From the NCBI GenBank assembly GCA_937873455.1, contig CALMYG010000002.1, forward strand, positions 11,325-75,324: a DNA stretch of 64,000 nt. The letters are read 5' to 3'. How positions within the stretch are numbered: the stretch's first letter is position 1; each line of letters starts with the position of its first letter. A model generated the notes under the pieces. The model saw nothing but the letters and a program-made list of their open reading frames with translations. It did not search any database and was not told the DNA's origin. The stretch comes from an uncultured Verrucomicrobiota bacterium. GTDB lineage: Bacteria > Verrucomicrobiota > Kiritimatiellia > CAIVKH01. Both the position numbers and the translations under genes were made by a program. Below are positions 21,601 to 47,141 of this stretch, piece by piece.

Positions 21601-22320
21601 ATGATGGCCCACAAATGGGTCACCGCCAACGCGGTCTGCGGCTTCTGGCCGGCCAATGCGGTGGGTGATGATGTTGAGTTCTACACCGACGATTCGCGCA
21701 AGCAGGTATTGCAAACCTTCCATTTCCTGCGCCAGCAAATGGACAAGCCGACCAGCAAGGCCAATCTTTGCCTCGCCGACTGGGTTGCACCGAAAGAGAC
21801 CGGCGTGCCGGATTGGGTCGGCGGCTTCGCGGTCACCGCCGGACACGGCATCGAGAAACAGCTCGAGGTGTTTGAGAAGGACCACGACGACTACCACAGC
21901 ATTTTGCTCAAGGCCCTAGCCGACCGCCTCGCCGAGGCGTTTGCCGAACACCTGCACGAGCGGGTGCGCAAGGAATTCTGGGGTTACGCCGCCGACGAGG
22001 TCATGAGCAACGACGATTTGATCCTCGAAAAGTACCGCGGTATTCGTCCCGCGCCGGGTTATCCGGCCTGCCCGGACCACACCGAAAAAGGCCCGCTCTT
22101 CGAACTGCTTGATGCTCCCGCACAAGCCGGCATCCGCCTCACCGAAAGTTTCGCCATGTACCCCGGCGCGGCGGTCAGCGGCTTCTACTTCAGCCACCCC
22201 GACTCCACCTACTTCGGCATCGGCCGCATCAACAAAGACCAGGTCGAGGACTACGCGAAGCGCAAAGGCGAGTCGGTGCAGTATGTCGAGCGCTGGCTGG
22301 CGCCGATTCTTGGGTACTGA
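18628..22320 (+). CDS. metH: Cobalamin-dependent methionine synthase MetH
   Basis: Hcy-binding, pterin-binding, B12-binding ([20 protein letters not shown]) and AdoMet activation domains are all present. The GTG at 18628 with RBS GGGAG gives an N-terminus matching MetH homologues; the longest ORF ATG is at 18568. Confidence 0.95.
22207..22247 (+). repeat. Left copy of imperfect direct repeat (metH 3' end, att-like)
   Basis: acctacttcggcatcggccg-ca-tcaacaa-a-gaccaggtcga, repeated at 32949-32989 with roughly 37 of 41 bases identical. Confidence 0.6.
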
Positions 22321-22365: not shown

Positions 22366-22809
22366 TCACGGCTTAAGTTCTGGATGTTTCGAATCCAACC
22401 ACGCCAGAACATCCACCTCAAGTCCTCGCGCGAATTCAATCAACTCATCTGCGTCGGCTTCTGTTGCGCCTCCCACATAGTCATACTCGACGGTGTTTCG
22501 TTTGGCTCGGCAGGTGTCGAGATATACGGCGTCGGTCTTTCGCTCGTCGCCGAGAATAAGCGGTAACGCCTGAAGCGTCCGATAGTGAGCAAGATTTTGG
22601 CTTGGTCTGTATCCTTCGGAATAAAGTAGAACCGTGCAAAGCTTTAACACTGCGTTATAGGCGATTCCAAAGCGCCAGTCAGAAGATATTCCACCCGCAG
22701 CGGAATCCGATATATCGCGACGAGCGATTGACACCAGGTTTTCTATTTCCTTTCGACTCGTCTTATGCGGTCTTAGCCAGCCATTAGTTTCCCATTGTTT
22801 TAAGCTCAT
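22366..22809 (-). CDS. HEPN-fold / nucleotidyltransferase-substrate-binding-like protein (partner of upstream MNT)
   Basis: 147 aa, predicted all-alpha, overlapping the 3' end of the MNT gene by 26 nt. The canonical Rx4-6H motif was not seen, so the assignment is by context. Confidence 0.45.
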   Translation of the reverse strand: MSLKQWETNGWLRPHKTSRKEIENLVSIARRDISDSAAGGISSDWRFGIAYNAVLKLCTVLLYSEGYRPSQNLAHYRTLQALPLILGDERKTDAVYLDTCRAKRNTVEYDYVGGATEADADELIEFARGLEVDVLAWLDSKHPELKP

Positions 22810-23377
22810 TAGGCGAACCTACCACAAAGATTTTCTCTGAATCCATAACGGAGGTTACAAAATGATCATTTTCTCGAAGCCGGCGGGAAAAATCCTCTGC
22901 GGTGATTACGTGCGGATTGATTTCTCTTCCCAAACGATCACTGAGACCGGAAAGCAATGACGATAACTTGCGGAGACTGATCGAACCGATCACCATTAGA
23001 TCGATGTCGCTATCCGCGCCAGCGGTGTCGCCAGCCACCGACCCAAAGACAAACGCACACCGAATACCATCCACCGCCAAAACATCACCCAGCACGTCGG
23101 CCAAGCCTATTGTTTTTAACACAAGTTGGTGAATATCCGGATAAAGTGGGTGGTTCTTGTTCGCAGAATAATACAACCGGTTCCCGTTACGCCGACGCGA
23201 CACGATACCCAATATGTTTAATTTCTCAATGTCCTGTCGCACTGTTCCGATGGTGAATCCAGTTTGCCGCTGTAAGTCTCGTAGATGGACCTCTCCTCCG
23301 CGCAAACCGAACAAAATCCGGAATATTTCCGCCCGGACTCGCGAGCAAACCAATTGAGCTAATACATTCATATGCAT
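22784..23377 (-). CDS. Winged-helix DNA-binding domain fused to minimal nucleotidyltransferase (MNT/MntA-like)
   Basis: C-terminal GSVAGDTAGADSDIDLMV, the GS-x9-13-DxD NTase motif. N-terminal wHTH (LRDLQRQTGFTIGTVRQDIEKLNILGIV). Confidence 0.75.
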   Translation of the reverse strand: MHMNVLAQLVCSRVRAEIFRILFGLRGGEVHLRDLQRQTGFTIGTVRQDIEKLNILGIVSRRRNGNRLYYSANKNHPLYPDIHQLVLKTIGLADVLGDVLAVDGIRCAFVFGSVAGDTAGADSDIDLMVIGSISLRKLSSLLSGLSDRLGREINPHVITAEDFSRRLRENDHFVTSVMDSEKIFVVGSPNELKTMGN

Positions 23378-23719: not shown

Positions 23720-24094
23720 ATGGCTTTCGAAAAGTTTACGCAGACAGGTACACGTCAAGCTCCGCTTGTTTCAATTAGGCGGGGGGGGTCGCTTGGATTA
23801 TCGCAGGGGGCCATAAATCGCTATGGTTTTGACAATGACATGACCCATGTAGTCTTGTTTTACGACAAAGAAGACAAACTAGTTGGGATTAAACCAATTG
23901 CCGGAGATTCTGAAGAGCATGCAATTAAAGTGATAGTCAGGCCGTATAAGGCGGCTAAGGGAAAAGAGTCAAAGACCGCGTTTTTCTCTGCCAAGTCATT
24001 TTTGGATTTTTACGCAATTCCGTATTCAGAGACCAAATCATATGACGCGAAGTGGGATGAACAGAACGCGATGATCGTCATCGATTTAAAATAA
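23720..24094 (+). CDS. Hypothetical protein
   Basis: 124-aa ORF behind an AT-rich promoter-like region (TTGACA/TATAAT hexamers at 23667-23678). No recognisable motif. Confidence 0.45.
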   Translation: MAFEKFTQTGTRQAPLVSIRRGGSLGLSQGAINRYGFDNDMTHVVLFYDKEDKLVGIKPIAGDSEEHAIKVIVRPYKAAKGKESKTAFFSAKSFLDFYAIPYSETKSYDAKWDEQNAMIVIDLK

Positions 24095-24259
24095 CATAAA
24101 AACTTATGGGCCCCGAGTAGCCTCGTGACCCATAAGCGAACCGGCCAGTTACGGACCGATTACTGTCTGTAACCTCTAATCTAAGACCATAACTGGCCAA
24201 ACGCAAGCAAAACCCGACCACTCGGCGGGCTACAGTCGAGTGGTCATGGAGTAACAGTT

Positions 24260-24772
24260 ATGGCATGGACCATGAGGATAGAACGAGCGAAACCAAATCC
24301 GCTCGGTAAAGACAAAACGGGTGCGGGATATCCCAAGCTTAATCAACTACTCGGAGAGTGGGTTGATCTCAAAAATATTGGAGATCAATCAGTCGACCTG
24401 AGTCAACTGCACTTGGCTCATCTTGAGTTCAGTGCTGGATGCAAACCCAAGGAAAGACCGGTGATCTACTGGAATGGGAAGGCGGGTACCATTCTGGGGC
24501 CTGGGCAAGTAGCTCGTATTCATACCGGAAGAAGTTCTGACTCACACCAAATGGATCTCGTGGACCAATTCGGTGCCGACATCCATTCATACGCCGAAAG
24601 CGGTTCGTTTGTTCTTAACAACGACTGCGGCGACGTTATGAGTGTGTGGTGGAAAGACCGCGAGGGAAACCTCCATAGAGATGATGCGGCTGGGTATGAT
24701 CCCAACCCACCAGAAGGTGCTATCCTGACCAGGGTTGGTCCAAAACTAAAACCAGTTCTGAGTTACGCATAA
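24260..24772 (+). CDS. Lamin-tail-domain (LTD) protein
   Basis: NPLGKD...GEWVDLKNIGDQSVDLSQLHL and NNDCGDVMSVWW..GNLHRD fit the LTD motif pattern NP.G.D..EWVEL.N.G...VDLSGW.L ... N.GD.V.L. Confidence 0.55.
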   Translation: MAWTMRIERAKPNPLGKDKTGAGYPKLNQLLGEWVDLKNIGDQSVDLSQLHLAHLEFSAGCKPKERPVIYWNGKAGTILGPGQVARIHTGRSSDSHQMDLVDQFGADIHSYAESGSFVLNNDCGDVMSVWWKDREGNLHRDDAAGYDPNPPEGAILTRVGPKLKPVLSYA

Positions 24773-24877
24773 GTGAAGCGGCGGCGATCCTTGTGTCTGT
24801 TGAAATGATTCGTTCCATAATGGATCATTTCAACGGCCAAGGAGCGCCTGACCGTCATATGATTGATGACTCACCTT

Positions 24878-25489
24878 CTAATAATCAAACACACCCTTGA
24901 TCCCGCTTTGGTCGAGTTGTACTTGACGCGGTATAAAATTATAACATGCTTGAGTCAGTTCCCATTGGCCATTCTTAACCAATTCCTTCTTTAATACAGC
25001 CAAGAGTCGAGGTAGATAAAAGACGTCTTTGGCTGCATATTTCAACTGTGCATCTGATAATTTTTTGGCCGCCCAATTCGAAGTGCGCATTCGCTTATCG
25101 ATACGAATCCCCAGTTTATCTCTTAGCAAAGACTTTAAACTATGATCACGCCTTGTCGGATCGACCAATTTGGATGCCACCTTTGTACAGGCGATGTTTT
25201 GAGGTTCTATTTGCCACTGATTAACCATGAAATTGAGATCAAATAATGCATAGTGAAACACCTTGCAGATATCTGGGCGCTCAATTAGCTCGATCATCTT
25301 TTGCGGCAAACCGCTGCCTGCCTTGATCACATAAACACTGCCACCTCCATACACCTGAAAAGACGCGATTGAGTTATCTCGCCAATCAAGACCTGTTGTT
25401 TCTATATCAACAGCCACAGCGCGCTTGGCTTTATAGCGGTCAATATTCAAGGATGCTGGTAAATCATGCGCCTTAAAAATGACATTCAT
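24878..25489 (-). CDS. 3'-5' exonuclease, DEDDy family (RNase D / WRN-exo-like domain)
   Basis: Exo I VAVDIETTGL, Exo II HYALFDLNFM and Exo III YAAKDVFYL motifs. The internal ATG at 25489 lies immediately after the upstream gene's stop (taa-t-ATG). Confidence 0.8.
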   Translation of the reverse strand: MNVIFKAHDLPASLNIDRYKAKRAVAVDIETTGLDWRDNSIASFQVYGGGSVYVIKAGSGLPQKMIELIERPDICKVFHYALFDLNFMVNQWQIEPQNIACTKVASKLVDPTRRDHSLKSLLRDKLGIRIDKRMRTSNWAAKKLSDAQLKYAAKDVFYLPRLLAVLKKELVKNGQWELTQACYNFIPRQVQLDQSGIKGVFDY

Positions 25490-25490
25490 A

Positions 25491-26264
25491 TTAATTTGCC
25501 CAGTGATAAAGTGATAACAATTGCCGATCAATGAAGTCGTATAATGTGCCTTCCCTTCGGACGCACAACACAGGAACGCCTCCACGGCCTTTGTCATGCT
25601 TGTGCAATGTAATTATTGCAATATCATCGAAACGATAAATATTAAAAAGAGGCGTTACTGGAGCTAGAATCACTTTTATCTTGTCGCCATTGTCCTCGAA
25701 TATTTGCTGGAACTCCTTAATGGTTTCATTAATGGACGCGATGATGTCGTCGTTGGGCAGATCGAATCGCCTCGCAAGCTCCGAAATACATGCTCCGTTT
25801 TTCGGATCCGGAACAATAAGCTTCAAAGTGGTCCCACGACGGGAGGCGAATTCCTTAAGACGCTTCAAGTTTGAATTTCTCCATGTTCGCGCATATGCAA
25901 AAAAAAGGTCGATCTGTTTAGCGTTCCGGAAAAGATCGTCCCATGAAACGTCCTGATAAAAATCCTGTGGCGTCGCGGTAATTCCCGCTTGTTTAAGATC
26001 ATCAGCGATCTTAGCACTTGCCAATATTTCAGCGACGAACGCACGTTTATTGATCAATTCCCATATTAGCATTATTAGGGCTGCGGGAAAAACAAGAGAT
26101 CCCGTTTGCGAGATCAGTTTCTGGAGCGTTGGGTGATAACTCAACCATGGAATCGATTCCGCGATATACATCAAGAGAAGTCCGATGCCCGCAACGACTA
26201 GCATTGATATAATAACGTGGAGATTTGTTCTTTCCTTGAGAAGATTTGTAATTCTATTTGGCAT
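25491..26264 (-). CDS. Membrane protein (2-3 N-terminal TM helices + ~170-aa soluble C-terminal domain), function unknown
   Basis: Hydrophobic segments LHVIISMLVVAGIGLLLMYIAESIPWL and SLVFPAALIMLIWELI. Very AT-rich gene, translationally coupled to the downstream exonuclease. Confidence 0.6.
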   Translation of the reverse strand: MPNRITNLLKERTNLHVIISMLVVAGIGLLLMYIAESIPWLSYHPTLQKLISQTGSLVFPAALIMLIWELINKRAFVAEILASAKIADDLKQAGITATPQDFYQDVSWDDLFRNAKQIDLFFAYARTWRNSNLKRLKEFASRRGTTLKLIVPDPKNGACISELARRFDLPNDDIIASINETIKEFQQIFEDNGDKIKVILAPVTPLFNIYRFDDIAIITLHKHDKGRGGVPVLCVRREGTLYDFIDRQLLSLYHWAN

Positions 26265-26305
26265 CGGACATCCATCCTCTTAAGCTTATATTTTAGCATT
26301 CCTGT

Positions 26306-28888
26306 TTATGTAATTCCCAGCACCTTCGTACACTCCTCCCCGAACTGGCTGATTACGCGGACGGCGATTTTTTGGGTCTTTTTCTTGATCTCGATGGGGT
26401 GTGAAAGGTGGCCGTAGATGCGGTCGAAGGCTTCGTCGTCGATTTCGATTTTCAGGGTTTTTTCGGCGTTGCGTTTGGTGGATGATTTGGCGAGGTCGGA
26501 GAGGCCGCGTTTCCATTTGTTGAACTCGTCCTTGTCGCCGCCGCAGAAGAAGACCTGGCGGACCATGAAGTTGCTGCCGTCGTAATCGTCGTCCACCATC
26601 CAGTAGGCGATGTCAGCGACGTCGCGGGGTTTGACTTCGTCGGTAACGGGGTCGTAGATGTCGAGGCCGCGGATTTCGACTTGAACTGCCTTGGGTTCGT
26701 TTTTCTTGGATTTTAACTCATTCAGCACAATATCCGGCTCGCCGATGGTGACAAAGGAGGCGGCTTTTTTGTCGCGTTTGAGCAGGCCGTCCTGCATCAG
26801 ATCGTCGTGCATGCGGACCTTGGTGACTTCGAAGGTGCCCATGCTGGCTGTCACGCTTTGGTTCTCGATGTTGCTCTCGAAGGAAAAGCCGAGAATGATC
26901 AGCCAGTCGGCGTCGCCGCGGGTCCGGCATTCCTTGACCGCTTCGTTGACCGCCTGACGGCTGACCGTGCCGAACTTGGGACCGATGTGGATGTAGGCCT
27001 TCTTTTCACCTTTGGCCGACTGGTAAAATCCTTCGGCGTGCAGATAGGCGCTGTTCAGCCGGTCCACCCGCATGAACACCGCCTGCTCGTTGCGGATGCC
27101 GTTTTTGATGCCGGCAGACTTCATGTGCTCGAATATCCGCTCTTCAAATGATTCCAATTCGTCCTTGTCCGGCACCGGCTTGTCCAATTCCTCCGCAGCA
27201 ATCGGTTCAAAGTTCTGGAGGGGTTCGACGGTGAACGGACCCGAGACGCGGAGCTTCTTCCGGTCAAATTCTGGCTGGTCAACAAGTATCTCTTCTCCCA
27301 GAGTTTCTTGTTGAGCAATTTGACCTAGCGTTACATGCGGCACTTTCTTGTACACGAATCCTTGCCGTATGTCGCTACCCGCATCGTCATACAGCTTGTA
27401 GTAAGGATAAGTTGACGAAAGAAGCCTTGTCTTTGATATATTTAAGGCAATTCGTGATGTGTCGATTGCAATCCAACGACGACCCCACTCCTCTGCAACA
27501 ACGGCAGTCGTTCCGCTACCGCATGTCGGATCAAGCACCAAATCACCGGGATCAGTTGCCATCAACATACACCGCTGAATTACGGTTACACCCGTTTGAA
27601 CAACATACAATTTGCCGGAGGCACCAGCAGTATCGGTCCACAAGTTGTTAACCTCAACAACCGGATAATCATCATAATACAATTTATAGCGAAGGGCATT
27701 CTGGGTGGCATACAGACGATTTTGATCGGCCAATTGCTTCATACCGGTCAGGTTGGTTTTCCAGCTTTTTCCAGCAGTAGGCCTATAGATTTTACCGTTC
27801 CACTCAAAATCAAATACACATGATTCTGTTCTTCCCGACGAAGAAAGATCTAGGCTCGTAAATACACGCGCACCCTCTGGTAACTTCAAGAGTTTCGACC
27901 GCTCATTTTTGCCAACAGATTCAATCCTCCCATCAGGATATTCAATCAAGCTGAATTGCTCTGATTCAACCACATCTTGATCTTGAAAAAGTTTTCGGTA
28001 TTTCATTGCCCCATCAGAAAAGCGCTTGCCGTACCATATAATGTAGTCGCATACGCCTGGTATGTAGGCATTTCGAAGAGGATTTTTAGTTTGAAATGCA
28101 ATTTGTGACACGAAATTATCACCGCCAAAGACTTCATCCATGAGACTGCGAACTAAATGCACATTCTCGTCGCTTATCTGCACGAAACACGATCCGCTTT
28201 CACTCAGAAGCTCCTTGGCCACGAGCAACCGATCACGCAAGTAGCCCAAGTAAGAGTGAATTCCTAACTCCCATGTATCACGATACGCTTTGATCTGCTC
28301 TGGTTCGCCCGTCAACTCCTCATCAGGCTGACTCTCTGACATAGATCGTTTATTCAGCTTCATCTGCCAGTTCGATCCGTATTTTATTCCGTATGGCGGA
28401 TCGATGTAGATCATCTGGACTTTGCCGGCCATGCCTTCTCGTTCGAGGAGGGAGGTCATGACGAGCTGGCTGTCGCCCTGGATCATGCGGTTGGTCCAGT
28501 CGTCGGCGTGCTGGTAGTACTCGGACACCTTGTCGATCTCGTCGAGTTTCAGTCCGTGGCCGAAGAGTCCGTTCAGAAAGGTTTGCTGGGCGTCGGGCAC
28601 TTCCTTGAGCTGGTACAATCGTCCGATGATTTTTTCCGGGGCAATGTGTTCGTGGCGATAGAGGGAGCGGATATCAACCTTGAGCCGGTCTTCGCGGTCA
28701 TCGGCACCGTATTTATGCATCCAGAACAATTCCGGGTCCTGGCCGCGATGGACGACGGGATTCACGGGAAAGTCCGCCTTTTCCTTGCCGCCTTTGACCC
28801 TCGGGCTGGACGATTCCTGCCCGGCTTCTTCTCGGGAAGGAATCAGCACCCGCTTCTCTTTGGAATGTTTGATGGATTTGATGGTCAT
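26306..28888 (-). CDS. mod: Type III restriction-modification Mod-like DNA methyltransferase (beta-class N6A/N4C MTase)
   Basis: Motif [11 protein letters not shown] precedes motif [17 protein letters not shown], the permuted beta-class order typical of Mod. 860 aa. Confidence 0.85.
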
Positions 28889-29082
28889 TTCGCGGCCTTG
28901 GTTCGGTAGGTGGCGCGGGTTTCGCGGGCGGCAGCGGCGGCTTCCGGACGCAGATGGACAATTTTACCATTCTTCACGACATGGATCGGGAGGCCGGCCT
29001 GCCATTGGCGGGCAATGGCTTTTTTCACCGCGGCTTTCATGGCGCGATCAGCCTGCACGGCCATGGATTCAGTTTTCTTCAT
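28885..29082 (-). CDS. Small hypothetical protein (65 aa) translationally coupled between P-loop kinase and mod
   Basis: Its ATG overlaps the kinase stop as ATGA, and its own stop overlaps the mod start as ATGA. Basic, lysine- and alanine-rich N-terminal stretch [29 protein letters not shown]. Confidence 0.4.
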
Positions 29083-29771
29083 GCTTTCGTCTCCCGGAGA
29101 AACACGTCGTAGCATTCCTCATTTCGAACACGTTCGGCACCCTCGGCCAACTCCACCATCAATACCGGTGAATTCCCCGAATTATCAAAGATCATGCACG
29201 AGTCAGCAAGTTTTTGATAAGCAGGCAGATTGGCGATAAATCGGGGCCAGCGCCGCCGGCGCGCCTCTTCCGGTACGTCATGCCCGCCCAATTTGACCCG
29301 GTTGGTAATCCGATATCGGGCCAAAGCGGGTTTGGATATCCACAATATGAACAAATGAATGTGATAGCCTCGCCGTTTTAGCTTCTTGATAAGGGCCAAA
29401 TAACTCCGGCCCGACAGGGTGGTTTCGAAGCCGAAATCATTCCCTTTCCGCGACAATTCCTCAATCCGGGTGAGGACCAGGCGTCCGGCGGAAAGCATGG
29501 CCCGGGCAGGGTCAAGGGGCGCCAATCCCTGGGCAATCAGGTCGGGGTTCACGAATTCACCGCAGTGCGCGTAGTGCGGCAGGTATTCCAATGCGAAGGT
29601 GGTTTTGCCCGCGCCGTTGGGTCCGGCAATGATGAAGCAGTTTGGTGCCTTAGCCATGGACAACTCCATCCGCCGTGTAGTAGCCGCTCCGTGAGCGGCA
29701 CGCCGACATGCTCGCTCGTCGAAATATGCGCCTCGCGGAAGCGCTACTACACCGCATGACTGATGGCTCAC
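29079..29771 (-). CDS. Zeta-toxin / AAA_33-like P-loop kinase
   Basis: Walker [13 protein letters not shown] and the kinase-fold arrangement. The start codon overlaps the res stop as ATGA. An alternative internal start at 29657 or 29669 is possible. Confidence 0.7.
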
Positions 29772-32700
29772 ACACCCGCCACCTCACGGGTCAGGATATA
29801 ATCACGCAACTGATTTTTGATATCACGGATATCCCCGGCAATCTCGATAAAGGCCCACGGATCATATTCGTACTTCTCCCGGACGGCATTGACGGCGGGA
29901 AGCCAGCGGTTTTCGACATACCACTTTTTGGCCGCCTTGTCCTGGCTCATGCCGGAGATTTCGATGATAAGGTTGATGTGCTGATCTTCAGCCACGCGGC
30001 ACCGGGCGATGAAATCGGGGAAATACAGCTTGTCTTTGCCGTCTTGAACATACGGGATGGCGAAGCCGAGGAAGGCGTTCTTCACGTAGGCTTCGACTTC
30101 ATCAAGCTCTTCCAATGTCTTGGCGGCGATCTGCTCCCAGCTATCGGTATCGGCGACCACATAATTGACATGGCTTTTCGTTGTTTCGAAAACCGGCCGT
30201 GAGGTGTGGCCATTGACGTAGGTGGTGCTGCCAAACTTATTGTAGAAATTAAGCACCGGTAGAATCTGATCCGTGGCCCGGCTGGCGGCCATGATGCCCC
30301 GGCTGATATGGCTACAGATCCGGTCCGGCAGGACAAAATACAGCAATTTTTTGAATGCCGGATCGGGAATGTTCAGCAGAACCACTTTGGTATGGTACCA
30401 CTTCTCGACAATGCGGAGAAGCTGGTTGAATTTGTAAAATTGGGGCTGACCATTGTCATCGCTGTAATGTTGATTGATCAGCGCGCGGGTGATCAGGAAA
30501 AATAATTCCTGCTCACGTTTTTCCACGATGGAACGGACCGTGAGTTTTTCCGTATTTTCGGAAAAAGCGGTGGCCATCTCGGTTTCCAGCGGGAATTTGG
30601 TGCCGTCGATTTCAAAATTTTCCAGGTTGGAAAAGTCGGCGGTGATGGGTCCGTCGCGTGATTCCACCCGGTAGCCGACGACATTGGGGAATGTGATCTC
30701 GAACTTTTCCTGCCGTTCCGGAATTGCAAGGATGTGCCACTTATCCACGGGCGGCGGAGGCTTGATCGTCCCGCCCTTGAACATGCGGAACGGAACGCCA
30801 ATGATGTGGGCGTATTCCGGGGGAAACTTCCAGGTGATATTTTCCGGCTTGAACCGTTTGATATTGTCCTCGGGAATTTCCTGTCCGTCCTTGTCGTAGG
30901 CTTGCAGTATGTAGTTCTTCCGGCGCAAAGCGCGGCCGGCGACCTGTTCGCAAAGCAACTGCGATCCGAAGGCGCGAAGCCCCATGATATGGGTGACGGT
31001 ATTGGCATCCCAGCCCTCGGTCAGCATGGAAACAGACACCACGCAACGAATATGGGCGCCCAGCATCCCTTTCTTCCCGACGGAGTTGACCACCTCGCGC
31101 ATGATTTCGGCCTCGGTGATGTTTTCGGCCGAGCCTTGGCCATGAATACGGGCGTACTCGCGTTTAAACACCTCGATTTCGTCGGAGAAGATTTTCTTGA
31201 AATCGTCGTTGATCTGATCGGAGTTTTCCAGGGCATCGCTGTCGATAAGGAGCGTCGGAGGCTTTTTGAGTGGTTTATGGGTTTTCCGGTCGTAGTTTGA
31301 AAAAATTTCAAAATGTCCGGGAATGGCCCGCAAGGTGTCATCCGGCAGGGTTTGTTCGTACCCGGCAATGTATTTGTATACTTCCTTGGAAACCGACGTG
31401 TTGTTGCATACGACAATAAACACGGGCGGGCTGTCGAACAATCCGCGGATTTGTTCATAATCGCGCTGGTAGTGCCCGTGGAATTTTTCGAGGGCGGCCT
31501 GCACGAGCGTCGGCAATTTCGGCGGTTCCTCCCCGACGGGGGTTTTCCCTTCCTTGCGGGCATCGGACTTTCGGCGCTTCTGACCCTTCTTTGGCAGTTC
31601 GTCCTTCACGTGTTCGTAAAGGTTGCGCAGGACCGGCATGGTCAATTCGTGGGTGGTATCGCTTTCCGGCAAGAAAGGAATTTTCACCAAACCGGCCTCA
31701 ATGGCCTCGATGAGGCCGAAATCGGTGACGACCCAGGGGAACAGGCTGTAAGCATCGTAACCGGAACCGGTCAGGTAATACGGCGTGGCGCTAAGATCAT
31801 AGACGGTGTCGACCTTGAATCGTTTGGCTACCTCAGTCAGCCCGGTAAACCAGACGGCGGCCCGTTTGTTTTCCTCCTTGGTATCCTCGCCCTCAATAGC
31901 CTTCCCGGCTTCTTTGGGCAGATAGCAGTGGTGAGCTTCATCGTTCAGGATCAGGAGGCGCGAGCCCGGCTTGATCTTGCCGAGCACGCGGCGCAGCATT
32001 TGTCCGGCATCTTCGGTCGCCTGCTGTTTTTCGCCCTGGGCATTGATTTTTCCATCAAATGGACTGCGTTTATTGCCCTGAAGGGTACGAGGTTCAAACG
32101 CGTGGTAATTGGTGATCACGATCCGGGCATTCAAATTGCCCATTTTGTTGTCCCACCCACGTGGAATCAGCGAGCGGGCATGATAGTAGTCCGTAATTTC
32201 CGCACGGCGGTCGAGGTTTACAAACAGCACGCCGAGGCGGTTTTTGATCGTGATACCGGGCGCAACAATCAGAAAGGAATCGGCGAAGCGGGTGTCGTTT
32301 CGGTATTCCTGTCGATTGAAGAAGTGATAGAGAATCTGCATGGCCATGACCACGGTTTTCCCGGTGCCGGTAGCCATTTTGAACGCGACGCGCGGCAGAT
32401 TGCAGGACAGGTTTTCCGTGCTGACCTGCTGGGCGGAACGCAATTGATTCAGGACATATTGACCGGCATTGGACCGGTCAGCTACTTCATTCAACCAAAT
32501 GGCAGTTTCGATGGCCTCGCGCTGGGCGAAGAAAAGTTTGGCCTCGGCATGTCGATCGGGATTTAGAAACCAAAAAGTCAGTAATTCGCGGGTCACGCGA
32601 GTCACCGAGGGATAACCATCCTTCCGCCAAAGCCCGACCTCTTTCCGCAACAAGTTGATCAAATGAGAACCAAATTCCTCGGCTCGTTCATTGATCTCGA

Positions 32701-32869
32701 ACATGGACCGTTGAGGTCCCTGCCGAACTGGAATAGACTGAATTTCCGGGGCAAAAATTCGGCGTCCCTTGACGATTTTCTGATAGTCCAGCGTTCCCTC
32801 GTCATCCGTGGCATAATGAAGCAACGGTTCATCATACGGGCTATTGAGGATGGGGTTGTCGGTTGTCAT
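29768..32869 (-). CDS. res: Type III restriction enzyme Res-like subunit (SF2 helicase/ATPase + C-terminal nuclease region)
   Basis: Walker [15 protein letters not shown] box LNDEAHHCY, later helicase motifs, and a ~300-aa C-terminal region. 1033 aa. Confidence 0.85.
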
Positions 32870-32924
32870 GAACCTCGCCTAATCACCGGCAAAACAATGC
32901 ATTTTCCCTGCGATCAGGGCAAGT

Positions 32925-33023
32925 ACGGAAAAGACGAGTCTCCAGTCAACCTACTTCGGCATCGGCCGGTTCAACAAGGACCAGGTCGATAGCGCCAACC
33001 CGCAGCGGTCAAACCAATGAAGC
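32925..33023 (+). pseudogene. Displaced, degenerate metH 3'-end fragment (right att-like repeat)
   Basis: Translates to ...[26 protein letters not shown], against authentic MetH ...[24 protein letters not shown].... A 20-nt exact match (acctacttcggcatcggccg) is present. Confidence 0.5.
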
Positions 33024-33069
33024 ATGTCCATTTTTAGCGACATGAACCACTATACTCCAACCGCTGATT

Positions 33070-33777
33070 TTGATATCACCGATCACCGTGACGGATCAAC
33101 CACCCCAATCGAGCCGTGAAATCGCGGTGTTCATCAGCGGGCGGGAATCGACGTGCGATGAATGCGGTCAGTCACTCGGCGCTCACGCCTGGATCACCGT
33201 GCGCGAAGGCAAGGCGGCGTGCCTTTCCTGCTCCGACCTTGATCATCTGGTGTTCCTGGCGTCGGGCAATGCCGCGCTGACGCGGCGCGCAAAAAAACAC
33301 TCCAAGCTGTCCGCCGTTGTGTTGAAGTGGAGCAAGGCCCGGAAACGCTACGAGCGGCAGGGGCATCTGGTGGAAAACGAAGCGCTCGAACGGGCGGAAA
33401 GCGAGTGCGAGGCCGACGCCGGGGAGCGGGAAGTCCGGCGCGCCCGGGAGGTCCTGCGCCGCGCAGAAATCGACCAGATCTATGTGCGCGCCTTCGCGGA
33501 AAAAGTCCGCGCGCTTTATCCCTCCTGTCCGGCCAAGCGGGAGTTTTTCATCGCCGAACACGCCTGCCGGAAATACAGCGGGCGGGTCGGGCGCACGGCT
33601 ATGGCCAAGGAGCTGGATGAAAAAGCCGTGCGCCTCGCCATGCGCGCCCATATCCGGCATGAGGAAACCGGATACGACACGATCCTTTCGCGCGGAACCG
33701 ACCGCCACGAAGCCCGCGACCGGGTGGCAGATGCGATCGATGACGTTGAACGCGCGTGGAGCGGCCCCGCTGCGTAG
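33070..33777 (+). CDS. Conserved hypothetical protein with N-terminal zinc-ribbon (DUF2293-like)
   Basis: CDECGQSL...CLSC zinc ribbon; C-terminal HIRHEETGYD motif as I recall it for the DUF2293 family. Confidence 0.55.
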   Translation: MISPITVTDQPPQSSREIAVFISGRESTCDECGQSLGAHAWITVREGKAACLSCSDLDHLVFLASGNAALTRRAKKHSKLSAVVLKWSKARKRYERQGHLVENEALERAESECEADAGEREVRRAREVLRRAEIDQIYVRAFAEKVRALYPSCPAKREFFIAEHACRKYSGRVGRTAMAKELDEKAVRLAMRAHIRHEETGYDTILSRGTDRHEARDRVADAIDDVERAWSGPAA

Positions 33778-45758: not shown

Positions 45759-47141
45759 TTAACCGGTTTGTTGCCGGATTTTTTTATACCGGGAATTCCA
45801 GGTTTGGTCATCCGCTATTTCGATGCGCACGGGAATGGCCTCCCGGGGGAGCCGATCGCGACAAAATACGCGCAGGCGATGGCGCAAGGCGCCCGGCTCT
45901 TCCGGGTTGACCAGGCGGACGGTCGCGGCCACGGTGTGGCCAAGGATAGGATTTTTCTCCCCGCTGACCACGGCATCGCGGATATTGTCAGCGGCAAGGA
46001 GGACGTTTTCCACTTCGGCGGGGTTGACCTTTTGGCCGCCGACATTGATCAGTTCGCTTTGCCGCCCCAGGACGCGGATGAAGTCACCATCCACCTCCAC
46101 CCGGTCACCGGTGTTGATCCAGCCCTCGGCATCAATAGGGCTCGGCGCGTTCAGGTAGCCGATCATGGATGACGGCGAGCGGATCCACAAGGTGCCGTCC
46201 ACCACTTTGATGTCAACGTCTCCGCCAGAAACCCGGAACCAGAGCGAACCGTCTTCGCGGGAGCGCGTGGGAGGAGATCCGAATTCCGTCGCCCCGTATT
46301 TCTGGATGAACCGGCAACGCGGCAAGACTTCGCGGAGGCGTGAAAGGGTGATCTCCGGCATGACTTCCGCGCCGTAGGTGATGATTTTCAGGCTGCTCAC
46401 GTCGTGCCGCGACAAGCCGCCCGACAACCACATGATATTAAGCAGGCTGGGTGTAGCAGGCAGCAGCTCGGCCTGATGCCGGGTGATAGCCGCGCAGATG
46501 CCATCGGGATCCGTCGACTCCGGAATGACGACGCCTGCCCCACTGGTGAGGGCGTACCACAAGCTGTCGAGGCCGGCCATGTGATCAAACGGAAGCACCA
46601 ACACGGTGCGCAACGCTGGATGCGGTTTCTGGAACTTGGACAGAAAGCGGTCGGCGCGGTGCAGGCTGGCCTTGGGCACACCGGTGGAACCGGAGGTGAA
46701 AATAATCAGCCCGCCCTGCCCGGCTTCGCGGCATTGCTCATAGAGCGCATGCGTCGCGGCGGCGGGGAAGGCGTGAGTGGTCCAGATGGAATCAGCGCCT
46801 CGCGGAGGCGCTACTACATCGGCGGTGCCCCGCGCATAGATCCATGATGGTTGAGCAATCTCCTTGGCGGCGTCCGGGCGGACCACGGCATTTGGCGTAA
46901 GGGGGATGGCGATACAGCCATGATCGAGAAGGGCAATTAACAGGGCGACCGAATCACCGTCCAGGCCGGCATCAAAAAGGACGGCCTGTCCGGCGGCAAC
47001 CCCATCGGCCTTTAGGCGCTCCGCCCACCGCGCGCATCCGGCCATGAGGTCATCATACCGAACGATCTGCTCGCCGCGAAGCAAGGCCGGCGCGTCCGGA
47101 TGGGCGCGCCAGCGCTCCATCAACCAGTCCAGCCCCATCAA
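45759..47141 (-). CDS. AMP-dependent synthetase/ligase (acyl-ACP/acyl-CoA ligase-like adenylating enzyme)
   Basis: AMP-binding motif IFTSGSTGVPK and downstream adenylation-core motifs. Confidence 0.85.
   Translation of the reverse strand: MMGLDWLMERWRAHPDAPALLRGEQIVRYDDLMAGCARWAERLKADGVAAGQAVLFDAGLDGDSVALLIALLDHGCIAIPLTPNAVVRPDAAKEIAQPSWIYARGTADVVAPPRGADSIWTTHAFPAAATHALYEQCREAGQGGLIIFTSGSTGVPKASLHRADRFLSKFQKPHPALRTVLVLPFDHMAGLDSLWYALTSGAGVVIPESTDPDGICAAITRHQAELLPATPSLLNIMWLSGGLSRHDVSSLKIITYGAEVMPEITLSRLREVLPRCRFIQKYGATEFGSPPTRSREDGSLWFRVSGGDVDIKVVDGTLWIRSPSSMIGYLNAPSPIDAEGWINTGDRVEVDGDFIRVLGRQSELINVGGQKVNPAEVENVLLAADNIRDAVVSGEKNPILGHTVAATVRLVNPEEPGALRHRLRVFCRDRLPREAIPVRIEIADDQTWNSRYKKIRQQTG

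Follow-up and report, generated by a model that had tools for sequence, protein, structure and literature searches.

A mobile zeta-like kinase cassette, probably a toxin-antitoxin pair, as an optional passenger between res and mod of a type III-like restriction-modification operon

In a 64,000-nucleotide (nt) stretch of contig CALMYG010000002.1 from an uncultured Verrucomicrobiota bacterium of the Kiritimatiellia (hereafter the window), a gene for a zeta-toxin-like P-loop kinase and a gene for a protein of 65 amino acids (aa) stand between the res and mod genes of a restriction-modification (R-M) operon. Are these two genes working parts of the R-M system, or passengers in it? The initial annotation of the window had proposed either an uncharacterised R-M variant with an obligately coupled kinase or a toxin-antitoxin (TA) pair embedded in the operon. 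The four co-directional minus-strand open reading frames (ORFs) that it listed, res, the P-loop kinase gene, the 65-aa gene and mod, were all recovered when the ORFs were read again. The kinase gene and the small gene form an autonomous mobile two-gene cassette that is dispensable for the R-M operon, and in systems of the type to which the operon belongs, the BPTD_3080 type, res and mod flank a slot with variable cargo. We consider it reasonably probable that this mobile cassette is a TA pair occupying the variable slot of a type III-like operon as an optional passenger.

The kinase gene (29079..29657, minus strand) encodes a Zeta/AvrRxo1-like P-loop kinase of 192 aa, a putative toxin, and the small gene (28885..29082, minus strand) encodes a 65-aa partner protein, a putative antitoxin, predicted to consist of a helix, a beta-hairpin, a second helix and a basic tail. 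A search with the kinase found 22 genome loci, in addition to metagenome loci. At 21 of the 22 genome loci, and also at most metagenome loci with a kinase at least 45% identical, the next gene downstream of the kinase gene is a homologous small ORF. The extent of the mobile unit can be read from two Lentisphaerae genomes (loci L018 and L019), which share 91.8% DNA identity over exactly 741 nt, corresponding to the two genes, and none beyond; only one of these two copies of the cassette lies within an R-M operon. The kinase occurs on 491 plasmid records versus only 4 phage records, and its contexts include a Tn3 passenger in Legionella, a position beside an integrase in Crocosphaera and a position between VapC pairs in Nostoc, in each case followed by a 'hypothetical protein' of 59-66 aa that matches the hidden Markov model of the small protein. 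Over 30 unrelated contexts were found for the cassette. The flanks of 30 distinct cassette loci are mostly unrelated housekeeping genes, together with integrases (3), Fic genes (3) and R-M genes, and other cassette loci adjoin RelB/ParE or HigBA-like pairs. Because the cassette is found mostly elsewhere, it is not a component of the R-M system. Additionally, the cassette lies between a cbiF-like TP_methylase gene and cbiG in a cobalamin operon of Akkermansia (L011, 9200-10794; L012; L014), where methylase and kinase read as one 455-aa ORF (TP_methylase 2-207, Zeta_toxin 316-439), which may be a fusion or a read-through.

The tight packing of the four genes had been taken in the initial annotation as translational coupling through ATGA start/stop overlaps at every junction. 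Such overlaps are present between the kinase and small genes (29079-29082) and between the small gene and mod (28885-28888), but the res/kinase junction at 29768-29771 reads GTGA. A kinase start at the GTG at 29771, which would overlap res, adds 38 Cys/Arg-rich residues that have no support among homologs, and it was rejected. The start was assigned to the ATG at 29657 (MAKAPN) because of the lengths of the homologs (nearly all of the best 120 have 190-197 aa), an identical 192-aa protein at NCBI (P0001, 'zeta toxin family protein [Kiritimatiellia bacterium]') that begins with MAKAPN at this ATG, as do the homologs listed with it, and the position of a GGAG Shine-Dalgarno motif (29664-29667) 6 nt 5' of it. 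Therefore, res and the kinase gene are separated by a spacer of 110 nt (29658..29767, minus strand). Most of this spacer is taken up by an imperfect hairpin with 29-nt arms (29672-29755), for which RNA folding and an inverted-repeat search gave a folding free energy (dG) of -57.4 kcal/mol (z = -3.08), with 0 of 200 shuffled sequences as stable. The hairpin had no match in Rfam and no copy in 110 related loci that would mark it as a repeat family; a partial copy of one arm (24/26 nt, itself palindromic) was found at 46795-46820, inside an unrelated coding ORF 17 kb off. A promoter and terminator scan of 26000-33200 showed no excess over shuffled sequences.

Overlaps of 4 nt are possible in 3 of the 30 co-directional neighbour pairs of the window and are thus ordinary there, so those in the operon indicate compactness and nothing more specific. 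At other loci, only one of the operon junctions is conserved, the kinase/small overlap, which is ATGA at 16 of the 22 genome loci and 14-17 nt long at most of the others. The small/mod overlap is replaced by a gap of 53 nt in L040 and of 9 nt in L018, two further R-M loci described below.

On profile evidence, the locus is a type III-like R-M operon, and its exact label is a BPTD_3080-type system. Res (29768..32869, minus strand, 1033 aa) is a predicted superfamily 2 helicase-nuclease that scored 1066.9 bits against the NCBIfam equivalog model NF046055 for the BPTD_3080 family of restriction endonucleases (cutoff 800), with residues 4-1024 aligned to profile positions 2-969 of 970, and it is thus a full-length member. 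Its score against NF012027, the model of the classical type III endonuclease, was 22 bits (cutoff 564). Res also carries a Pfam ResIII helicase domain (4.4e-12) and, at its C-terminus (residues 883-972), where classical type III Res proteins have a PD-(D/E)xK nuclease, weak matches to the PADLOC REase_III models (3.9e-7); no solved structure was matched by sequence in a search of the PDB. Mod (26306..28888, minus strand, 860 aa) is a predicted beta-class N6/N4 DNA methyltransferase with a Pfam N6_N4_Mtase domain at residues 157-485 (1.4e-27) and a match to the PADLOC MTase_III model PDLC03632 at 9.5e-157. Its best solved relatives by sequence are the type III Mods 6k0w, EcoP15I (4zcf_A) and Mbo45V (7dsu), and motif IV (DPPY) precedes motif I (DPTCGSGTT), as in classical type III Mods of the beta class, whose target recognition region lies between the two motifs. 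A large co-directional N6_N4 methylase gene is paired with res here and in all of the 14 plasmid operons considered next. The C-terminal ~370 residues of Mod (~490-860; 26306-27420) are without a Pfam domain yet kept in other Mods of the family, as in L027 and L040, whose Mods share 35% identity over 356 aa.

The arrangement of res and mod was compared across 14 annotated plasmid operons with a Res of the BPTD_3080 family. The gene order is res-then-mod in 9 and mod-then-res in 5, and the space between the two genes is empty in 7 and filled by one or two additional genes in the other 7. The cargo comprises a UPF0175/DUF3368 pair (pAQ5 of Picosynechococcus PCC 7002), a DUF3800 protein (Thermus) and hypothetical proteins of 68, 139, 173, 307 and 354 aa. 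Therefore, the res-first order, which the initial annotation had called inverted, is normal in this family, and the slot between the genes often holds unrelated cargo. In a BPTD_3080-like operon on a plasmid of Agrobacterium tumefaciens F2 (L116, 1-7599), a DEAD/DEAH helicase gene stands directly 5' of mod-then-res, an arrangement resembling the 'third ATPase' type III systems (PMC8259958).

The kinase is absent from the closest relatives of the window operon (L023, L024 and L025), whose Res is 86% and whose Mod is 77% identical. Their slot contains a small gene, an AAA_21/AAA_15 ATPase gene and a gene for a 202-212-aa protein, followed by mod. The ATPase (L023, 8122-10030; L025, 10278-12156) has 421 aa and is AriA/HEC-01A/AbiLi-like, and the 202-212-aa protein beside it in L023 and L025 matched no Pfam or PADLOC family; the two are a candidate two-gene defence module. 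Neither tblastn nor alignment found a kinase remnant in the spacers of L023 and L025. Only two proteins are closely related to the 65-aa protein (80% and 66% identical), both encoded in these orthologous operons. Purifying selection acts on this orphan small gene even where the kinase is missing: the ratio of nonsynonymous to synonymous substitution rates (dN/dS) is 0.08-0.16 in comparisons with the window copy and about 0.2 for L023 against L025.

The cassette has nevertheless entered R-M loci more than once. In the Hydrogenedentes loci L040 and L041, it lies between a Res 72% and a Mod 62% identical to those of the window, with unrelated flanks. In L018, it stands between Mod and Res of a type III system in the classical order; in L102, it is directly upstream of an Eco57I/MmeI-type methylase gene; and on plasmid pSYSG of Synechocystis PCC 6803, it follows hsdS in a type I R-M locus. 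An R-M gene was the immediate neighbour at 4 of the 30 distinct cassette loci, a frequency that looks above chance relative to random placement; TA families of the kind that would serve as controls are themselves concentrated in defence islands. The pSYSG locus (L111/L115, 1920-6601) is a type I R-M locus interleaved with several TA-like pairs in one orientation, in the order DUF433/PIN, hsdS, a small nucleotidyltransferase, the zeta-like kinase with its 59-aa partner, and a DUF4433 protein with a macro-domain protein (DarTG-like). Kopfmann et al. reported a set of 'genes related to TA modules' in the pSYSG island that failed their criteria (PMC4963859); the genes are not individually named there, and we infer from position and gene numbering that the set includes the kinase and its partner.

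The kinases of the window and L040 are about 52% identical and are not sisters in a neighbour-joining tree, and the kinase of L036, from a non-R-M context, is 57% identical. Between the window and L040, the nonsynonymous rate (dN) is 0.47 for the kinase versus 0.21 for Res. Co-inheritance of the four genes in the window and L040 is therefore not supported, with the kinase at ~52% identity, non-sister and at more than twice the dN of Res. The comparison favours separate captures or replacement of the cassette over simple co-inheritance, although the tree is star-like and would not decide the matter. The initial annotation had stated that the pair would be a fortuitous insertion if it proved to lie mostly away from R-M genes or if the overlaps were not conserved. 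The pair does lie mostly away from R-M genes, and the small/mod overlap is not conserved, but the kinase/small overlap is, and the repeated capture of this type of cassette in R-M loci (L018, L040, L102 and pSYSG) speaks against mere accident.

The kinase is a member of the zeta-toxin domain family, matching Pfam Zeta_toxin PF06414 at 1.7e-9 (37.8 bits, cutoff 22.3), as well as AAA_33. Clustered at 90%, its relatives number more than 7,400. Its AlphaFold2 (AF2) model is confident, with a predicted local distance difference test score (pLDDT) of 89.5, and the top Foldseek matches were zeta (1gvn, 3q8x), AvrRxo1 (4z8t) and PezT (2p5t), with query-normalised TM-scores (TMq) of 0.68-0.75 and E-values of 4e-8 for 1gvn_B, 5.8e-8 for 4z8t_A (TMq 0.73) and 1.6e-7 for 2p5t_B. 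These three toxin families rank above 6-phosphofructo-2-kinase (PFK-2) and polynucleotide kinases. The residues invariant in 46 kinase homologs include the Walker A lysine K18, D39 (in N-x-D), E78-x-T80, R116, R120 and GGH124-126. In the zeta toxin, Asp67 is catalytic and Thr118 contacts the substrate UDP-N-acetylglucosamine (PMC3062530); by motif pattern, D39 and T80 of the kinase resemble these two residues. PADLOC gave no defence-system model for the kinase and the small protein beyond a P-loop match.

The partner belongs to a family of 1851 clusters at 50% identity, nearly all of them stand-alone proteins of 50-130 aa, for which there is no Pfam or NCBIfam model. No significant fold or profile match was found for the partner, solved antitoxins included, and a search of the PDB with its profile returned no Arc1 chain even at E-values up to 10. 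In L102, the partner ORF is intact beside a truncated kinase gene.

The nearest functional analogue of this behaviour is avrRxo1:arc1, in which the toxin gene comes first with a small antitoxin gene downstream, the module is mobile with differing flanks, and arc1 is intact where the toxin is inactivated (PMC4938570). The assignment of the kinase as putative toxin and the small protein as putative antitoxin is supported, by analogy, because of this avrRxo1:arc1-like pattern, the plasmid- and transposon-rich distribution and the other TA pairs nearby. The embedded TA pair of the initial annotation is supported by cassette behaviour, fold and evolutionary pattern, with toxicity itself still putative. 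If the analogy with epsilon/zeta, PezAT and especially AvrRxo1:Arc1 holds, kinase and partner would be made together through translational coupling, and the partner would bind and block the kinase. Upon loss of the genomic island that carries the operon (described below), or upon a shut-off of host expression, for example by a phage, the partner would decay, and the freed kinase could phosphorylate an essential nucleotide-type metabolite, similar to UDP-N-acetylglucosamine or nicotinamide adenine dinucleotide (NAD), leading to growth arrest. Such a response would stabilise the R-M island and might also back up restriction with a further, abortive defence. In addition, the stop codon of the partner overlaps the start of mod, and translation of Mod is probably coupled to the cassette; speculatively, such coupling would make a clean loss of the cassette costly.

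Several observations weigh against the TA reading. Only the fold and the Pfam model link the kinase to solved zeta toxins, PDB searches by sequence (phmmer) and by profile gave nothing but P-loop matches, and the residue correspondence with zeta comes from motif pattern, not from superposition. The AF2 model of the partner is only moderate (pLDDT 70.6), and fold and profile searches detected no similarity of the partner to epsilon, PezA or Arc1. Toxicity, neutralisation and kinase-partner binding are putative here and drawn by analogy, and the direction of change, loss of the kinase in the relatives or gain in the window, is one that we infer. The persistence of the orphan small gene could equally reflect a kinase-independent role, for example as a regulator, and the stable cassette in the cobalamin operon of three Akkermansia genomes could point to a non-toxic role. 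Taken as a full alternative, the latter would make the cassette a mobile metabolic or housekeeping accessory, composed of a small-molecule kinase and a small regulatory or chaperone partner. The fixed position between the cbiF-like gene and cbiG, with a possible fusion to the methylase, the many housekeeping neighbours and the relatedness of the fold to PFK-2 and polynucleotide kinase would all suit such an accessory, but the best fold matches are three toxin families, the distribution is typical of TA modules (plasmids, a Tn3 passenger, integrases and neighbours such as VapBC, RelB/ParE and HigBA-like genes), presence among close relatives is patchy, and the kinase decays while the partner is retained. 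We therefore regard a non-toxic accessory as improbable.

The place of the cassette in the R-M operon can be explained in more than one way. The obligately coupled kinase of the initial annotation would make the kinase and the small protein integral parts of a new kinase-dependent type III-like system, with all components inherited together. Tight packing with two ATGA overlaps agrees with this idea, as does the recurrence of the res-kinase-small-mod order in L040/L041 with all junctions overlapping or close. However, the closest relatives, L023, L024 and L025, have no kinase although purifying selection maintains their intact Res and Mod, half of the annotated family operons (7/14) have an empty slot and the rest hold unrelated cargo, and most kinase-small pairs are away from R-M genes. 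Moreover, the L040 kinase (52%) is no closer to that of the window than the non-R-M L036 kinase (57%), although the Res of L040 is 72% identical, and the res/kinase junction is a 110-nt spacer, not an overlap. An obligate four-component system is thus already largely refuted by the comparative data, and we hold it to be highly improbable. A looser association would be selective recruitment, in which R-M operons take up the cassette because the two cooperate. The kinase would be released when a phage inhibits the R-M enzyme or host expression and would abort infections that get past restriction, so that the cassette would guard the R-M system. The same type of cassette in several R-M loci (the window, L040, L018, L102 and pSYSG), the separate capture suggested by the L040 pair (Res 72% identical, kinase only ~52% and non-sister), the immediate R-M neighbours at 4 of 30 distinct loci, above random expectation, and the filling of the same slot by an AriA/AbiL-like ATPase pair in relatives all point this way, and the concept is established for PrrC (EcoPrrI) and PARIS (PMC12707154). 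On the other side, about 85% of cassettes have no R-M gene beside them, mobility and not function explains the clustering of many TA and defence genes in islands, the TA part of Pez-Ham is not needed for defence (PMC13064477), any physical or regulatory coupling to Res or Mod is hypothetical, and the sample is small. Recruitment as a guardian is accordingly possible but rather unlikely, and the reading of the cassette as a probable TA pair that rides in the slot as an optional passenger is preferred.

The operon rides on a low-GC island of ~10.7 kb inserted in the 3' end of metH. The island is bounded by two 44-nt direct repeats on the plus strand that are 91% identical according to a repeat search of the window, the left copy in the metH 3' end (22204..22247) and the right copy in a metH 3' remnant just upstream of res (32946..32989). 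The guanine-plus-cytosine (GC) fraction between the copies is 0.44-0.56 versus ~0.60 around them. In L023 and L025, the orthologous islands are bordered by this metH fragment too, and the neighbours of the L025 island are those of the window. No integrase was seen inside the ~10.7-kb island. At its metH end, a gene pair on the minus strand (22366-23377) matches the PADLOC candidate system PDC-M05, with A (5.9e-55) composed of a winged helix-turn-helix and an MNT-like nucleotidyltransferase and B at 9.4e-43, and the pair is conserved in L025. At 23720-26264, the island also encodes a 124-aa orphan that is kept in L025, a protein with a lamin-tail domain (24260-24772), an exonuclease of the DEDDh 3'-5' type (24878-25597) and, just downstream of mod, a 257-aa orphan (25491-26264). 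An exonuclease 3' of mod was considered as a conserved companion of the operon and rejected: one is annotated in two plasmid operons, with no sequence similarity to the exonuclease of the window.

The idea of a kinase-dependent restriction enzyme fails, and the cassette family and the variable slot remain the points of interest. The comparisons define a large uncharacterised two-gene cassette, apparently a toxin-first putative TA of the zeta/AvrRxo1 type, that is present even in the model cyanobacterium Synechocystis 6803. In the open-access literature, we found no paper with COG4185, none on a zeta-like cassette in type III R-M operons, and no description of the cassette family as a validated TA, of the partner family or of the BPTD_3080 cargo slot. 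A bolder proposal, which we judge unlikely, is that cassettes are preferentially recruited between R-M genes across R-M types (type III-like, classical type III, type I and Eco57I-like), where they would back up evaded restriction or island loss by killing or arrest. If true, the BPTD_3080 res-mod slot would serve as a dedicated dock in which second-line modules can replace one another, namely the zeta-like cassette, AriA/AbiL-like ATPase pairs and PIN-type TA pairs. The repeated capture by different R-M systems offers a cheap test of whether an embedded TA stabilises islands, backs up restriction or hitch-hikes.

Compared with the classical type III systems EcoP1I and EcoP15I, the operon shares a beta-class Mod related to the EcoP15I Mod, a predicted ResIII helicase-nuclease and the two-subunit logic. 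It differs in its Res, which falls in a curated family of its own and far below the classical model in score, in a Mod ~200 aa longer with a C-terminal region of no assigned domain, and in a usual order of res then mod. Classical type III enzymes depend on ATP for cleavage and need a pair of unmethylated sites in inverse orientation, and their Mod hemimethylates the DNA. Extra genes on type III operons are documented, including a conserved helicase-like ATPase gene 5' of mod (Murray et al. 2021, PMC8259958); in those variants the third gene is 5' of mod, whereas the variable slot here is between the genes. Self-contained toxic or abortive modules within or against a DNA-targeting defence operon are known from PrrC in the type IC EcoPrrI locus and PARIS, described as 'R-M guardians' (PMC12707154), from PIN-type TA pairs linked to type I R-M subunits (PMC5499597) and from Pez-Ham, in which PezAT is joined to Hachiman and the TA is not required for defence (PMC13064477). 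Comparable embedding in an R-M operon was found in the window, L040 and L018, where the cassette separates res from mod, and on pSYSG, within the type I locus. The host operon in the window is of the type III-like BPTD_3080 kind and the cargo a zeta-like kinase with an unmodelled partner, and the BPTD_3080 slot thus carries over to a second R-M class what type I loci show with PrrC and PIN-type TA pairs. In guardians of the PrrC type, the R-M enzyme restrains the module and triggers it, whereas the cassette resembles them in gene position and usually occurs without any R-M gene.

Among TA systems, epsilon/zeta and PezAT share with the cassette the Pfam Zeta_toxin domain and fold (1gvn, 2p5t, 3q8x), a Walker A lysine with a conserved aspartate in the pattern of the catalytic-base position, and a plasmid-rich distribution. 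In those systems, a UDP-N-acetylglucosamine 3'-kinase activity is toxic and is neutralised by the antitoxin; for the kinase of the window, the conserved motifs K18, D39 and E78-x-T80 are the corresponding observation. Unlike the downstream, unrelated partner described here, their antitoxin has its gene upstream and folds as a helical bundle (epsilon, or PezA with a helix-turn-helix). In addition, the kinase is 50-80 residues shorter and too distant in sequence from solved zeta toxins for phmmer or profile searches to pick up a similarity. AvrRxo1 is a type III-secreted effector of ~420 aa that phosphorylates NAD, whereas the kinase of the window has 192 aa and no extra domains, and the 65-aa partner has no detectable similarity to the 98-aa Arc1. 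In overall design, the cassette is nevertheless like AvrRxo1:Arc1 in its zeta-like kinase fold (Foldseek 4z8t/4z8q, TMq 0.73-0.74), in a toxin gene that comes first with a small partner gene immediately downstream (the 4-nt overlap being conserved across cassette loci), in a partner that stays intact where the toxin is lost, and in forming a mobile module with differing flanks.

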